A DNA stretch of 64,000 bases from Escherichia coli (GTDB lineage: Bacteria; Pseudomonadota; Gammaproteobacteria; Enterobacterales; Enterobacteriaceae). Positions 45,358 to 58,330 of the stretch are shown here, piece after piece (within the stretch, counting starts at the first letter, position 1; each line of letters opens with the position of its first letter). The stretch is taken from assembly GCF_003334765.1 (NCBI RefSeq), contig NZ_QOWT01000005.1, one strand, 5' to 3'. A model generated the notes under the pieces. It was not told the DNA's origin. It was given only the letters and a program-made list of their open reading frames with translations, and made no database searches. The translations under genes and the position numbers were made by a program.

Positions 45358-46050
45358 CTAGTGATAACCACGCGCGGTCATAAAATCCGTAATCGCTTTT
45401 TCTGCATCAATCAGCACCTTTTCCAGTGGCTGATTAGCATCGATATCAACCAGTTGTGCACCACCAAAGGTTAACTGTGGCGTTATGGCTATCTTTCTTG
45501 CCAGCGATTCCCTTTTGTGGTCAGGCTTACGCGCGCAGGCCACGTCTAGATCGACATTGAGTTTGATGACCAGATCAGGTTTATGGCTCGCCATCCAGTG
45601 AAACGCTTTACGTTCCTGGCTTGCCAGCCATGAGACAAAACGACCACCTTCAATGTTAGGTGGGAACACTGTACCATCGTAAGCGCCAGGAATTTGGTCC
45701 TGAGGATAACGGTCGGTTAGAACAATTAACCCGCGACGACGACAGGCAAGCATATGACGAAAGCGCAGTAAGCGACGGGCGACAAACGCTGTAATTACCA
45801 GCGCCGGAACAGGGCCAGGCAATTTTTTTGCTGTTTTCACCTGATTTCGTTCAATTGTTTTATGTAAGGATTTTCCCATGAACGGTAATTTTGTCACTGC
45901 ACGACCGACATTTCCGGCCTGTTTTCCTAAATGAACTCTTTCGGCAGCACCATATTTTTCGACAACGGTAATGAGATGTTCACACACCGTTGACTTGCCT
46001 GAACCATCGCTACCAATAACGGCAATTAATGGAGGTGTTATTGACTGCAT
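45358..46050 (-). CDS. yghT: P-loop kinase-like protein YghT (Walker [10 protein letters not shown]; TDRYPQ motif)
   Basis: 230 aa; paralogous to the two following ORFs; divergently transcribed from them. Confidence 0.8.
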
Positions 46051-46130
46051 GAATATATCCTTTAATTTAAATATCCATTAAAAATATTTATTTGGTTAAT
46101 ATGTTTTTATGAAAGCGTAATTCAGGTCAA

Positions 46131-46155
46131 TGTCACAATTAACCATTGTCACAAT
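46131..46155 (+). promoter_or_regulatory. Direct repeat TGTCACAAT-N7-TGTCACAAT in the yghT/yghS divergent intergenic region; candidate regulator binding site
   Basis: Two identical 9-mers (46131-46139 and 46147-46155) read directly in an AT-rich promoter region. Confidence 0.35.
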
Positions 46156-46223
46156 AAGGTTGAACGGATATTCTGAGCACGGACCACGTAATATTCAATA
46201 CATTATTTGCTGCCGGGTTTTTC

Positions 46224-55096: not shown

Positions 55097-56817
55097 GCCA
55101 GGGACTCCTGCACATGAAGACTGGCAGCATAAGCCTTCTGATAACGTTTTTTCGCTTCCGCACGGGCAGGCTTGCCGGAGGATGTTCGGGGAATACTGTG
55201 GGGCGGCAACAGATCGATATCCGCGGTAACGCCAAATTCGCTTTGGATCCGTGCTGCCAGCGCGTGGATAAGCTGCCCGCGACGTTCTTCATCGCTGATC
55301 CGACACTGGATCTGCAAAATGATTTTTTCTTGGGCGGTAACAAAAGCAATCGCATCGCCAGAATGAATTTCCGGTTCCTGTTCCGCAATATATTCAATAT
55401 CCTGCGGCCAGATATTACGGCCACGAATAATAATCAGATCTTTAATGCGTCCGGTGACATACAGATAACCGTCCAGCAGATAACCGAGGTCGCCGGTGTC
55501 TAACCAGCCCGTCGCGGCAATCTCGTCTTGTGAAATCTGGTCGCCAAAGTAACCGCTCATCAGGCTAGGGCCGGAGATGCAAATATGGCCTACCACACGT
55601 TCCGCGACAGGTATACCTGCTTCATTGCGGATTTCAATGCCATGTTCCGGCAACGCTTTACCGCAGTTGACGAAAGTCGATACGGCGCGTGTTTCAGCAT
55701 CCGGCGCGACGGCTTTGCCCTGATATTCGAGGATGTCGCGATCCACTTCGTTAACCACAACCCCGGAAGCTTCATCAGAGAAGCTGACAGCCAGCGCATT
55801 TTCTGCCAGTCCGTAGCACGGCATGAAAGTTTTATCGTCAAAGTTGACCTGACGGAAACATTCAGCGAATTGATGGAGTTGTTCTGCGGAGATGGGTTCT
55901 GCACCAATACCAGCGACGCGCCAGCAGGAAAGATCCAGTTCAGCGAGATCTTTTTCATTCACGCGGCGCTGGCACAATTCATAGCCAAACGGCGGCGCAA
56001 CGGAAACGGTGCCGCGATTTTTACTGATCAATTTAAGCCATTGCAGAGGACGCATGGCAAAATCCTGAGTGCGCAAATAATCTACTGAGAGTTGCGTGGC
56101 GACGGGGGTCAGGAGAAAGCCGACCAGTCCCATATCATGGTAGAAAGGCAGCCAGGAGACGCAGCGGTCGCCAGGGCGTAATTTTATGCCATCGTGGCTT
56201 ATAGCACGTAGATTAGCCATCACTTCGCGATGGGTGATAATGACGCCACGGGGAAAACGGGTGCTGCCGGAGGTGTACTGGAGGTAGGCGATATCGTTCG
56301 GAACTGGACGCTGGAGCGCAACATCGGCTTCCGGTAATGCCTTAAACCAGGCGTGGCTTAAAACATGTAATTCGGGGTTGTTGTTATGCGTCGCGGCATT
56401 GACCAGTGGCAACCACTCATCACCAGTGATAATGGCTGCGGGCTGGCAACTTGCCAGTAAACCCTGCAGCTTGCCGCTCCAGGAATCCCGCTGACCGACG
56501 CCCATGGGAATCGCCAACGGGACGGCGACTAAGCCGGCATACTGGCAGGCAAAAAAAGCCTCTACGAACCCGCTACTGGTTTCGGCAATCAGTGCCACGC
56601 GATCGCCTTTTTTCAGGTTTAGCGATAACAACCGCTTCGCACCAGCTTCGGCACGCGCTTTTAACGTCTGATATTCCAGTTGATCTTCAAGTTGGCAACG
56701 TCTGTCATAAAAATTCATTCCAGCGCTACTCAGAGCGGCATAGTCCAAAGCATCAACCAGCGTTGGAAAATCGGCATAGCGCATAGGTAGGGAATGCGTA
56801 AAGATTTTATTAGACAT
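55093..56817 (-). CDS. Fatty acyl-AMP ligase / acyl-ACP synthetase (adenylate-forming enzyme)
   Basis: AMP-binding motifs YTSGSTRFPRGV, YGLAEN, TGDLG, IIRGRNIWPQDIE; start uncertain (ATG at 56817 chosen; frame is open to a TTG at 56844). Confidence 0.8.
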   Translation of the reverse strand: MSNKIFTHSLPMRYADFPTLVDALDYAALSSAGMNFYDRRCQLEDQLEYQTLKARAEAGAKRLLSLNLKKGDRVALIAETSSGFVEAFFACQYAGLVAVPLAIPMGVGQRDSWSGKLQGLLASCQPAAIITGDEWLPLVNAATHNNNPELHVLSHAWFKALPEADVALQRPVPNDIAYLQYTSGSTRFPRGVIITHREVMANLRAISHDGIKLRPGDRCVSWLPFYHDMGLVGFLLTPVATQLSVDYLRTQDFAMRPLQWLKLISKNRGTVSVAPPFGYELCQRRVNEKDLAELDLSCWRVAGIGAEPISAEQLHQFAECFRQVNFDDKTFMPCYGLAENALAVSFSDEASGVVVNEVDRDILEYQGKAVAPDAETRAVSTFVNCGKALPEHGIEIRNEAGIPVAERVVGHICISGPSLMSGYFGDQISQDEIAATGWLDTGDLGYLLDGYLYVTGRIKDLIIIRGRNIWPQDIEYIAEQEPEIHSGDAIAFVTAQEKIILQIQCRISDEERRGQLIHALAARIQSEFGVTADIDLLPPHSIPRTSSGKPARAEAKKRYQKAYAASLHVQESLA

Positions 56818-57187
56818 ATACACCACGAAAAAATTGGATATCAAAAATAAAATGACAATAATGCGGTGGATTATATAGGCATAAAAGATAAATGAGATAG
56901 TATTTTCATCAGTGTGAAAATGAACATTGATTTAAATAATGAATTTGAGTTTTTTGTTTTTATTGTGAATGATATTTAATTTATGAATATATTAAGAAGG
57001 AGCCTTGTCCGGTCGCCTTAAATCGACAAAAGGCATTGTGGCGCTTCTGTGTAGTCTCTGACCTTATCGTAATCATTAATAAATACTATTTATTCGTCGT
57101 TTGTATTCATTGGGTTGATTATTAAGGTGCCGTTCGTTGCTGTTGCAACCTGTTTGTCACCGTTAATTATTTGTTACCCACAGAACT

Positions 57188-58330
57188 ATGGAATGCGATC
57201 TGCTGATGATTAAAATTGAAAAAGTAATTAATAAAAATGACCTTAAGGCATTTATCGCTTTTCCGTCATCACTTTATCCCGACGATCCAAACTGGATACC
57301 CCCTTTATTCATTGAACGCAACGAGCATTTGTCTGCGAAAAATCCGGGGACGGACCATATCATCTGGCAGGCGTGGGTGGCAAAAAAAGCGGGGCAGATA
57401 GTTGGGCGTATTACCGCGCAAATAGATACCTTGCACCGCGAGCGTTACGGCAAAGATACCGGTCATTTCGGCATGATTGACGCCATTGATGATCCGCAGG
57501 TTTTTGCCGCGTTGTTTGGCGCAGCGGAAGCGTGGTTGAAGTCACAAGGTGCAAGTAAGATCAGCGGGCCTTTCAGCCTGAATATCAATCAGGAAAGCGG
57601 ATTACTGATTGAAGGTTTTGACACTCCGCCCTGTGCGATGATGCCACACGGCAAACCGTGGTATGCCGCGCATATTGAACAACTGGGTTATCACAAAGGC
57701 ATTGATTTACTGGCGTGGTGGATGCAGCGAACCGATCTCACTTTCTCTCCGGCGCTAAAAAAACTGATGGATCAGGTGCGCAAAAAAGTGACCATTCGCT
57801 GCATCAATCGCCAGCGGTTTGCCGAAGAGATGCAGATCCTGCGTGAGATTTTCAATTCTGGCTGGCAGCACAACTGGGGATTTGTGCCGTTTACCGAACA
57901 TGAATTCGCGACCATGGGCGATCAACTTAAATATCTGGTGCCGGACGATATGATCTACATCGCTGAGATTGATTCTGCACCCTGCGCGTTTATTGTCGGC
58001 TTGCCAAACATCAACGAGGCGATTGCCGATCTGAACGGATCGCTCTTTCCCTTCGGCTGGGCAAAATTGCTGTGGCGTTTAAAAGTCAGCGGTGTGCGAA
58101 CTGCGCGAGTACCGCTGATGGGCGTGCGGGACGAGTATCAGTTCAGCCGCATCGGCCCGGTGATTGCGTTGTTATTGATTGAAGCCTTACGCGATCCGTT
58201 TGCCCGCCGGAAGATCGATGCGCTGGAGATGTCATGGATCCTCGAAACCAATACAGGCATGAATAACATGCTGGAACGCATTGGGGCAGAGCCGTACAAG
58301 CGTTACCGATTGTATGAAAAGCAGATTTAA
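57188..58330 (+). CDS. yghO: YghO, putative GNAT-fold N-acyltransferase (intact 380 aa); candidate N-acylating enzyme of the lipid pathway
   Basis: Continuous 380 aa ORF divergent from the ligase operon across an AT-rich intergenic region; GNAT assignment is from memory and unverified; start (57188 or 57206) uncertain. Confidence 0.65.
   Translation: MECDLLMIKIEKVINKNDLKAFIAFPSSLYPDDPNWIPPLFIERNEHLSAKNPGTDHIIWQAWVAKKAGQIVGRITAQIDTLHRERYGKDTGHFGMIDAIDDPQVFAALFGAAEAWLKSQGASKISGPFSLNINQESGLLIEGFDTPPCAMMPHGKPWYAAHIEQLGYHKGIDLLAWWMQRTDLTFSPALKKLMDQVRKKVTIRCINRQRFAEEMQILREIFNSGWQHNWGFVPFTEHEFATMGDQLKYLVPDDMIYIAEIDSAPCAFIVGLPNINEAIADLNGSLFPFGWAKLLWRLKVSGVRTARVPLMGVRDEYQFSRIGPVIALLLIEALRDPFARRKIDALEMSWILETNTGMNNMLERIGAEPYKRYRLYEKQI

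Follow-up and report, generated by a model that had tools for sequence, protein, structure and literature searches.

The yghT-yghO locus of Escherichia coli, a probable sphingolipid-type lipid synthesis and export locus eroded by IS5 in laboratory K-12

What does Escherichia coli carry between yghQ and yghO, where MG1655 has a single IS5? The question is raised by a stretch of 64,000 nucleotides of E. coli DNA (assembly GCF_003334765.1, contig NZ_QOWT01000005.1), which is called the window here and to which all coordinates refer unless another locus is named. Between pitB and glcC the window holds the yghT-yghO block, 13 genes at 45358-58330. We consider it likely that this block is a long-resident E. 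coli locus for a sphingolipid-type lipid and its dedicated export, and that it has been destroyed repeatedly by insertion sequences (IS), its erosion in K-12 having proceeded via IS5. The chromosome of E. coli B771 matches window 45000-59500 at 100% identity, and its annotation by the Prokaryotic Genome Annotation Pipeline (PGAP) was transferred to the window. The features needed below are these:

48841-57227 (8,387 bp), no strand: interval missing in MG1655-type K-12, one IS5 instead
48841-50197 (1,357 bp), no strand: interval missing in WG1/NCM3722-type K-12, IS5 instead, with the same left junction
45358-46050, minus strand: yghT, PGAP coding sequence for a P-loop kinase-like protein, one of three paralogues, Walker A motif GSDGSGKS
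46224-46937, plus strand: yghS, P-loop kinase-like paralogue
46969-47727, plus strand: yghR, P-loop kinase-like paralogue
47773-49122, plus strand: yghQ, full length (449 aa), MOP/Polysacc_synt-type flippase (Pfam PF01943 and PF13440)
49122-49946, plus strand: hypothetical protein of 274 aa with a CHAD-like all-helical fold
49958-50518, plus strand: gene of a YtfJ-family periplasmic protein (TIGR01626)
50549-51619, plus strand: lptF-like gene, second-copy ABC transporter permease (TIGR04407; Pfam PF03739)
51616-52695, plus strand: lptG-like gene, second-copy ABC transporter permease (TIGR04408)
52693-52727, no strand: hairpin with a 16-bp stem between the convergent lptG-like gene and spt, from a consensus scan; putative bidirectional terminator
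52730-53902, minus strand: spt, serine palmitoyltransferase (SPT), an alpha-oxoamine synthase (Pfam PF00155)
53902-54150, minus strand: acpR, specialised acyl carrier protein (PF00550)
54182-55096, minus strand: 'epi', CerR-like SDR reductase, in PGAP an NAD-dependent epimerase/dehydratase (PF01370)
55093-56817, minus strand: aasR, acyl-AcpR synthetase, a fatty acyl-AMP ligase (PF00501)
56818-57187, no strand: AT-rich divergent intergenic region between aasR and yghO (GC about 0.42), with presumed promoters
57188-58330, plus strand: yghO, 380 aa, tandem-GNAT N-acyltransferase, homologue of bacterial ceramide synthase ('aca')
43810-45309, plus strand: pitB, flanking phosphate transporter
58406-59176, minus strand: glcC, on the other flank

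IS5 junctions in the K-12 branches

In an MG1655-derived genome, yghQ is cut after 1,065 nt and followed by a 1,195-bp IS5 and then by yghO. Alignment and reading of the junctions place the breakpoints between 48840 and 48841 and between 57227 and 57228. With these 8,387 bp, MG1655 has lost 282 nt from the 3' end of yghQ, eight complete genes, the region between aasR and yghO and 40 nt from the 5' end of yghO; yghT, yghS and yghR are retained. The element, with GGAAGGTGCG... ends, lies at 6842-8036 of the K-12 locus (L002), where PGAP annotates an IS5 transposase. Its flanks read TTAG on the left and TTAA on the right and a target-site duplication is absent, which argues for an IS-associated deletion and not for a simple insertion; a complete IS stands at the breakpoint, the genes on both sides are truncated, and relatives possess the missing DNA at the same site. 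The K-12 'yghO' of PGAP (1,137 nt) has as its start codon an ATG within the IS5 right end (L002 8003-8040; compare window 57228). Hence, the annotated K-12 YghO is a chimeric reading frame with an IS5-derived N-terminus, and its native promoter is gone. At the left junction, K-12 reads GATTTAG directly before IS5, whereas five genomes with an intact block (the window, BL21, CFT073, O157:H7 LSU61 and O103:H2) read GATTCAGG there (window 48838). The T-for-C difference creates an IS5 target of the YTAR type; it could be a single-nucleotide polymorphism of the K-12 lineage or a footprint. Reported yghQ variants of chlorhexidine-adapted K-12 adjoin this junction and were judged uninformative on function.

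Other K-12 strains retain more of the block. Lyons et al. (2011) reported '7 kb of new sequence' in K-12 NCM3722 (PMC3045373), and Browning et al. (2023) a 'block of additional genes flanked by IS5' in WG1 relative to EMG2, MG1655 and W3110, with WG1/NCM3722 and EMG2/MG1655/W3110 placed on separate K-12 branches (PMC9997739). Both strains keep about 7 kb of the block, with two IS5 copies. The left junction of yghQ and IS5 in NCM3722 is identical to that of MG1655, while the right end of the same element abuts TTAA at 50198 inside the ytfJ-like gene, a deletion of 1,357 bp; the ytfJ-like gene is thereby truncated at its 5' end in NCM3722 and WG1. The second IS5 of NCM3722 has the same orientation; it sits close to the acpR 3' end and is bracketed by a clean TTAA duplication (53937-53940). 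Intact in this strain are spt, the lptF-like and lptG-like genes, the reductase gene, aasR and yghO.

Queries spanning the junctions were compared with 5,426 complete E. coli genomes. The left junction of yghQ and IS5 occurs in 347 of them, the MG1655-type junction of IS5 and yghO in 353, and the NCM3722-type junction of IS5 and position 50198 in five, namely NCM3722, WG1, CY598, CY706 and CY708. The common left junction implies that the MG1655 and WG1 types descend from one IS5 insertion. In the K-12 lineage, IS5 would have entered yghQ; the WG1/NCM3722 branch would then have lost 1.36 kb and received an IS5 in acpR, and the EMG2/MG1655/W3110 branch would have reached the state in which a single IS5 joins the rest of yghQ to the rest of yghO, with 8.4 kb gone. 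On this reconstruction the MG1655 state is a later loss, from a WG1-like state or a common precursor, and would be the last stage of an erosion in several steps. Each of the three IS5 right ends borders on a native TTAA site. The deletions probably arose by recombination between direct-repeat IS5 copies or by IS5-mediated adjacent deletion up to a TTAA target; since WG1 and NCM3722 carry two direct copies, a route in which another direct copy inserted and then recombined is plausible.

The two K-12 types may instead have arisen independently from a K-12 ancestor with nothing but the yghQ insertion, the MG1655 state being a single event of 8.4 kb. We take this possibility seriously while leaning against it. 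Only the left junction is common to both types, MG1655 shows no trace of a second IS5 or of the 50198 junction, and the separate branches (PMC9997739) would suit such a history. However, the number of events is equal under both models, and WG1 demonstrates that direct IS5 repeats existed, which would have made recombination from a WG1-like state easy.

The DNA of the NCM3722 and WG1 papers is thus the same DNA as the remnant of the block that survives in one K-12 branch. In the passages that concern it, these papers describe the remnant as extra sequence relative to MG1655 and not as the rest of a species-wide sphingolipid locus; Lyons et al. asked whether it was connected with biotin synthesis, and the genes named by Browning et al. 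are lptG, acpP and oleD (PMC3045373; PMC9997739). A likeness exists to rfb-50 (IS5 in wbbL) and rfb-51 (PMC9997739), where an envelope-related locus was likewise lost through IS5 and the end states of WG1 and EMG2/MG1655 differ. Those are two independent lesions as described there, whereas the deletions at yghQ are nested and have the left junction in common.

An original prediction had placed an IS5 between yghQ and yghO in K-12, with no genes for SPT, acyl carrier protein, ligase or LptFG-like proteins at this site; according to the alignment, this is true of MG1655. It had also taken yghQ (449 aa) and yghO (380 aa) to be apparently full length in the window, with no IS at this site. The gene map and our search agree: IS5 sequence was found nowhere in the window, and the B771 PGAP annotation contains no transposase between gss and glcF. 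The explanation of the MG1655 state as an IS-mediated deletion stands in view of the truncated yghQ and yghO, the unlike flanks and the missing DNA present at the exact site elsewhere. Other statements have to be adjusted. The additional DNA, given as about 8 kb at 49.1-57.2 kb, is indeed an additional block but extends slightly further (48841-57227). Of the yghT-yghO locus, said to be lost as a whole, only the part from the end of yghQ to the start of yghO is gone, and yghT, yghS and yghR were kept. Finally, the loss ascribed to 'K-12' applies to MG1655, W3110 and EMG2 but not to WG1 and NCM3722, which retain about 7 kb.

Distribution, repeated loss and ancestry

Counting coverage of at least 80% as presence, we find the 8,387-bp segment in 4,064 of the 5,426 complete genomes (74.9%; the RefSeq set is skewed to clinical lineages and laboratory strains, and such percentages are not population frequencies). 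It is partial in 213 and missing from 1,149, and coverage at this level does not mean that every gene is intact. The matches are 96-100% identical, and all but one are chromosomal. The interval 39500-64000 (24.5 kb) is covered to at least 80% in 4,044 genomes, and its left flank at least is found in every genome. Among the carriers are HS, BL21, UMNK88, O103:H2, O111:H8, O104:H4, CFT073, APEC IMT5155, MS14384 and the atypical O157:H7 strains LSU61 and EC10, the last two with an intact block; together these strains span phylogroups A, B1, B2 and E. All 13 reading frames are intact in B771, BL21, CFT073 and O157:H7 LSU61. In O103:H2 FWSEC0007, yghR is annotated as frameshifted within an otherwise intact block (L066 4930-5687), and one O121:H19 genome contains IS3-family transposases under the segment match.

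K-12 is not the only lineage to have lost the block. In typical O157:H7 (86-24 and others), pitB breaks off at about 45045 and runs into IS3/IS66 remnants and the efa1'-nleE-nleB island (16368-29479 of the 86-24 locus, L062), and the genes from yghT through at least glcB are missing. The corresponding pitB junction occurs in 296 genomes. In one genome each, an IS26 joins the truncated yghQ to a remnant integrase beside tRNA-Phe, an IS1 joins gss to a remnant integrase beside tRNA-Phe, and a Mu-like prophage follows directly after the lptG-like gene. The O157:H7, IS1 and IS26 losses are events independent of that in K-12. The stretch from pitB to tRNA-Phe is a zone of recurrent IS-mediated loss, and its variability stems from repeated deletion of an intact state.

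The age of this state was addressed outside the species. One genome per GTDB species was scanned with the SPT protein, for which exact matches of 8-residue peptides were required, and all window proteins were then compared with the returned loci by tblastn. The complete block lies between pitB and glcC-glcD in Escherichia sp. E1V33, in E. whittamii and in one 'E. coli' that GTDB treats separately; in Escherichia sp. MOD1-EC7003 the contig ends within yghQ, and only the glcC side is visible. GTDB counts all four as species of their own, and three of them do not bear the name E. coli. E. ruysiae is among the members of the SPT cluster at 90% identity. Against these cryptic clades, the synonymous divergence (dS) of the block genes is 0.24-0.78, and that of the flanking pitB, glcC and glcD 0.11-0.38; against E. 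coli strains the values are 0-0.2 for the block genes and 0.02-0.19 for pitB, glcC and glcD. The ratio of nonsynonymous to synonymous divergence (dN/dS) is 0.01-0.2 in most comparisons, and for every one of the 13 genes against the cryptic clades. The level of dS together with the low dN/dS supports a long residence under purifying selection.

Features of a mobile island were not found: the tRNA scan gave no tRNA in the window, mobility genes are absent, GC content is ordinary and no real plasmid copies exist. The block has a GC content of 0.45-0.54, similar to its flanks, except for the AT-rich region between aasR and yghO. Matches were obtained for 4 of 72,556 plasmid records. Three are from E. 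coli; two of these, at 4.9 and 4.8 Mb in PLSDB, are so large that they appear to be misfiled chromosomes. The fourth record is a distant match, a Rahnella megaplasmid with a related spt operon (71.6% identity). The sequence comparisons support the view that the block is ancestral to E. coli and the cryptic clades. The original prediction of a system ancestral to the species is in line with the 4,064 of 5,426 genomes, the same flanks in cryptic-clade Escherichia, the flank-like dS and the lack of island marks, its scope now being E. coli together with the cryptic clades. Far from being confined to a single strain among foreign mobility genes, which was named beforehand as the counter-case, the block is species-wide and contains no mobility genes.

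The predicted lipid pathway

What might the block do? For its right half, the answer can start from published work. Padilla-Gomez et al. (2022) described ECD_02850-02854 of BL21 as yghO ('aca'), aasR, epi, acpR and spt (PMC9386255). BL21 AcpR carries 4'-phosphopantetheine, co-expressed AasR, AcpR and SPT make 3-oxo-sphinganine, and SPT prefers acyl-AcpR; AasR was characterised as ECD_02851, and 'epi' was equated with CC_1164 of Caulobacter crescentus (all PMC9386255). The data on this first step come from heterologous expression or overexpression. This BL21 set is the same locus, 97.4% identical to window 48841-57227 and with the same gene order. As far as its text on these genes goes, that paper treats the five genes and cites B-type strains (BL21 and ETEC B7A), and the eight left genes, the frequency in the species and the IS5 erosion of K-12 go unmentioned there.

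The window proteins have the corresponding features. SPT matches PF00155 and possesses the motif GTFSK244S with the lysine for pyridoxal phosphate; AcpR contains the motif DLGLES39, and the acpR stop overlaps the spt start at 53902; the SDR reductase has GxxGxxG and Y122xxxK motifs. An AMP-forming acyl-ACP synthetase (PF00501) and an SDR reductase (PF01370) lie in one operon. YghO has a tandem-GNAT fold and is a homologue of Caulobacter CC_1154 (bCerS/aca); it is 42% identical to the product of a gene beside an LptG-like gene in a Caulobacteraceae spt locus. We regard spt-acpR-epi-aasR plus yghO as the published dihydroceramide gene set, with a sphingolipid as the predicted product.

For the left half, the assignments come from protein families and neighbourhood. 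YghQ has seven or more hydrophobic segments; its homologue (33% identity) stands directly upstream of aasR-epi-acpR-spt in a Caulobacteraceae genome, and it matches the putative flippase CC_1166 (PMC11324152). For the 274-aa protein the fold of the polyphosphate-binding helical CHAD domain was found; in Pfam no CHAD match was obtained, the only match at E<=10 being to an unrelated phage family (E 0.48). The YtfJ-family protein scores 216 bits against TIGR01626 (cut-off 151) and has an N-terminal signal-like segment. The LptF-like protein reaches 320 bits against TIGR04407 (cut-off 230) and the LptG-like protein 305 bits against TIGR04408 (cut-off 240), with a match to PF03739; an LptB- or LptC-like gene was not found in the block. 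Since MG1655 is a viable producer of lipopolysaccharide (LPS) without both genes, the LptF/LptG-like proteins are paralogues and not the housekeeping exporter. The essential housekeeping lptFG (yjgPQ) are located elsewhere in MG1655. Against the dTMP-kinase model TIGR00041 (cut-off 83), YghT scores 24 bits and YghS/YghT 24-33 bits. The PGAP label 'dTMP kinase' for YghS/YghT is not supported by these scores, which are below the cut-off; a distant resemblance to thymidylate kinase in PDB sequences supports the fold family but not the activity. A defence-system reading was discarded: for YghT/S/R, the 274-aa protein, YghO and the YtfJ-like protein, the PADLOC models yielded nothing beyond noise at the level of the P-loop.

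A comparable region is CC_1152-CC_1168 of Caulobacter crescentus, a sphingolipid region that includes LptF2/LptG2 (PMC11324152). Common to it and the E. coli block are aasR-epi-acpR-spt, the N-acyltransferase (CC_1154/yghO), the putative flippase (CC_1166/yghQ) and a second LptF/LptG; the Caulobacteraceae locus found in our scan likewise has the flippase, aasR, epi, acpR, spt, the LptG-like gene and the yghO homologue. Unlike Caulobacter, the E. coli block has no LptC2 and no detected homologues of ceramide-phosphoglycerate genes. Instead of a kinase like CpgB, the ceramide kinase of Caulobacter, it contains three P-loop proteins with the thymidylate-kinase fold, a CHAD-fold protein and a YtfJ-family protein.

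The two halves are connected by their co-occurrence. All 13 genes are found together in Citrobacter amalonaticus, C. youngae, Pseudocitrobacter, Hafnia paralvei, Serratia, Mangrovibacter, Pluralibacter, Rosenbergiella and Pantoea sp. A4. There they form four rearranged sub-blocks: yghO with aasR-epi-acpR-spt, yghT with yghS-yghR, yghQ with the 274-aa gene and ytfJ, and lptF-lptG; several Pseudomonas genomes have a reduced set without yghQ, the 274-aa gene and the ytfJ-like gene. Co-occurrence that persists through rearrangement is good evidence of functional coupling, and yghT-yghO fits as a unit. In Citrobacter, Pseudocitrobacter, Hafnia and Pluralibacter, pitB adjoins yghT as well, with glcC and gss not adjacent there; pitB, a second phosphate transporter, may travel with the block. 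Serratia sp. M24T3 contains two spt-acpR loci, one within a full 13-gene block and another in which only spt and acpR are detectable (80% and 69% identity).

According to the mechanism we propose, AasR loads a fatty acid onto AcpR, and SPT condenses acyl-AcpR with serine to 3-oxo-sphinganine; these two steps are shown or strongly supported. The later steps are read from homology and gene neighbourhood: dihydroceramide would be completed by the SDR reductase together with the tandem-GNAT YghO, the three P-loop kinases and the CHAD-fold protein would build or handle a phosphate-containing head group, YghQ would flip the lipid across the inner membrane, and the second LptF/LptG would extract it towards the outer membrane, borrowing LptB, perhaps with the YtfJ-like protein. 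A lipid-synthesis and export system had also been the original prediction, and the gene content agrees with it: spt, acpR, aasR, the SDR reductase gene and yghO are accompanied by a MOP flippase and LptF/LptG paralogues, and the BL21 orthologues of the first genes in the chain make 3-oxo-sphinganine in the experiments cited from PMC9386255.

Some features of the block concern its boundaries. Strong GC-rich hairpins occupy both convergent junctions (45319-45347 between pitB and yghT, 52693-52727 between the lptG-like gene and spt) and are probably bidirectional terminators. At 58331-58420, the yghO stop and the glcC 3' end are separated in the window by about 76 bp that MG1655 lacks, its spacer being 6 bp; most genomes align in two pieces at this spacer, and the insert changes the C-terminus of GlcC (256 vs 254 aa). 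The insert (…GCGCAGGGGCGATCCCTCGCCCCTCGGGGAAAGGGTTAGGGTGAGGGTG…) resembles an intergenic repeat of the boxC type. A promoter scan gave no more hits than in shuffled sequence and says nothing on regulation.

Alternatives and implications

Several observations weigh against the reading of a long-resident locus for a sphingolipid and its export. The literature searched holds no report of a sphingolipid from native E. coli. The locus is probably silent in standard culture, considering the AT-rich aasR-yghO region and yghS, which is reported to be bound by H-NS and raised 3.1-fold by overexpression of SlyA in K-12 (PMC5797941). YghR, YghS and YghT had been considered as homologues of CpgB, a candidate relationship that was rejected: CpgB is a kinase of the LCB5/diacylglycerol-kinase type with a GGDG motif, whereas the three proteins have a Walker A motif and the thymidylate-kinase fold. 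The export step by the LptF/LptG paralogues is proposed by analogy with Caulobacter, for a block that has neither LptB nor LptC. In Oecophyllibacter saccharovorans (Acetobacteraceae; L070 9932-17691), a fused double YghT/R-like kinase (438 aa) stands with homologues of the 274-aa protein (35%) and of YghQ (35%); this trio is accompanied by GT4 glycosyltransferases and a His_Phos_1 protein, and the nearest 10 kb contain no spt. The trio is thus a conserved sub-module, its substrate not necessarily a sphingolipid, and the left half may serve another one. As regards the age of the block, no locus under the names E. albertii, E. fergusonii, E. marmotae or Salmonella came out of the SPT scan, an absence that is weak evidence because of the exact 8-residue requirement. 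Furthermore, when CFT073 is compared with BL21, most of about 13 kb from yghS to glcC (window ~46.0-59.0 kb) shows 0-3 mismatches per kb, with 11 in one segment; outside this stretch the counts per kb are as high as 75 in gss/pitB and 10-34 in glcD-glcB. A near-identical block between divergent flanks indicates that homologous recombination moves the block between lineages, and descent has not been vertical alone; the pattern resembles that of a recent exchange by recombination whose extent is almost exactly that of the block.

This exchange, the patchy distribution among species representatives of Enterobacterales and Pseudomonas and the spt operon of the Rahnella megaplasmid (71.6%) could be taken to mean that the block is an island acquired horizontally by this strain and its relatives, with K-12 close to an ancestral empty site. 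We regard such an origin as barely tenable: the K-12 genes are truncated on both sides of an IS5 that lacks a target-site duplication, 7 kb survive in WG1 and NCM3722, 75% of the complete genomes have at least 80% of the segment at one chromosomal site, the cryptic clades have it between the same flanks, and GC content is ordinary, tRNA and integrase are missing and dS is flank-like. A resident locus might also be a decaying relic with no present-day function, its loss in K-12 being inconsequential. The frequency of independent losses (353 genomes of the MG1655 type, 296 of the O157:H7 type, the IS1 and IS26 deletions, and prophage or IS insertion) would suit this, as would the frameshifted yghR of one O103:H2 genome and the likely silencing by H-NS. 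Low dN/dS at a dS of 0.24-0.78 against the cryptic clades and 13 intact frames in B771, BL21, CFT073 and LSU61 make decay very improbable.

As for the product of the locus, in vivo it could be some other aminolipid, or modified LPS or lipid A, instead of a sphingolipid. The permeases of the LptF/LptG family exceed the curated cut-offs for LPS export, PGAP labels in the block read 'lipopolysaccharide biosynthesis protein' and 'LPS export permease', the kinase/CHAD-like/flippase trio of Oecophyllibacter keeps company with glycosyltransferases and not with spt, and the literature searched gave no E. coli sphingolipid. Yet the SPT, AcpR and AasR of BL21 give 3-oxo-sphinganine with a preference of SPT for acyl-AcpR, in the results reported in PMC9386255, homologues of all five dihydroceramide genes are present and clustered, and MG1655 is viable and makes LPS without the block, which is thus no housekeeping Lpt system. 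On balance we hold this explanation to be unlikely, and prefer that of a sphingolipid-type lipid with its own export. A further step is more speculative, and we offer it tentatively, with more doubt than conviction: most wild E. coli may be able to make an undetected sphingolipid, probably with a phosphate head group, which the kinase/CHAD/flippase module would build and flip and the second LptF/LptG would deliver to the outer membrane, and which would have been missed through the IS5 loss in K-12 and silencing in the laboratory.

The main points of this picture have been published before, namely the five BL21 genes and the extra DNA of NCM3722 and WG1. No paper was found that joins sphingolipid, spt, K-12 and IS5, and yghO/yghQ and yghR/S/T are mostly mentioned incidentally. 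The literature searched likewise gave no stepwise account of the IS5 events with exact junctions, no genome counts, no mention of independent losses in O157:H7 or through IS1 and IS26, no 13-gene module conserved in Enterobacterales, no selection analysis and no assignment of the CHAD-like or tandem-GNAT folds.

E. coli is the textbook organism of membrane lipids and is taught as free of sphingolipids. Three quarters of its complete genomes carry a locus for predicted ceramide synthesis and Lpt-like export, which MG1655 lacks only through IS5 events, and at least one IS5 event separates the laboratory K-12 branches. The same events explain the chimeric 'yghO' annotation and the truncated 'yghQ' of K-12. 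Hence, caution is advised: MG1655 should not stand for the lipid repertoire of the species.

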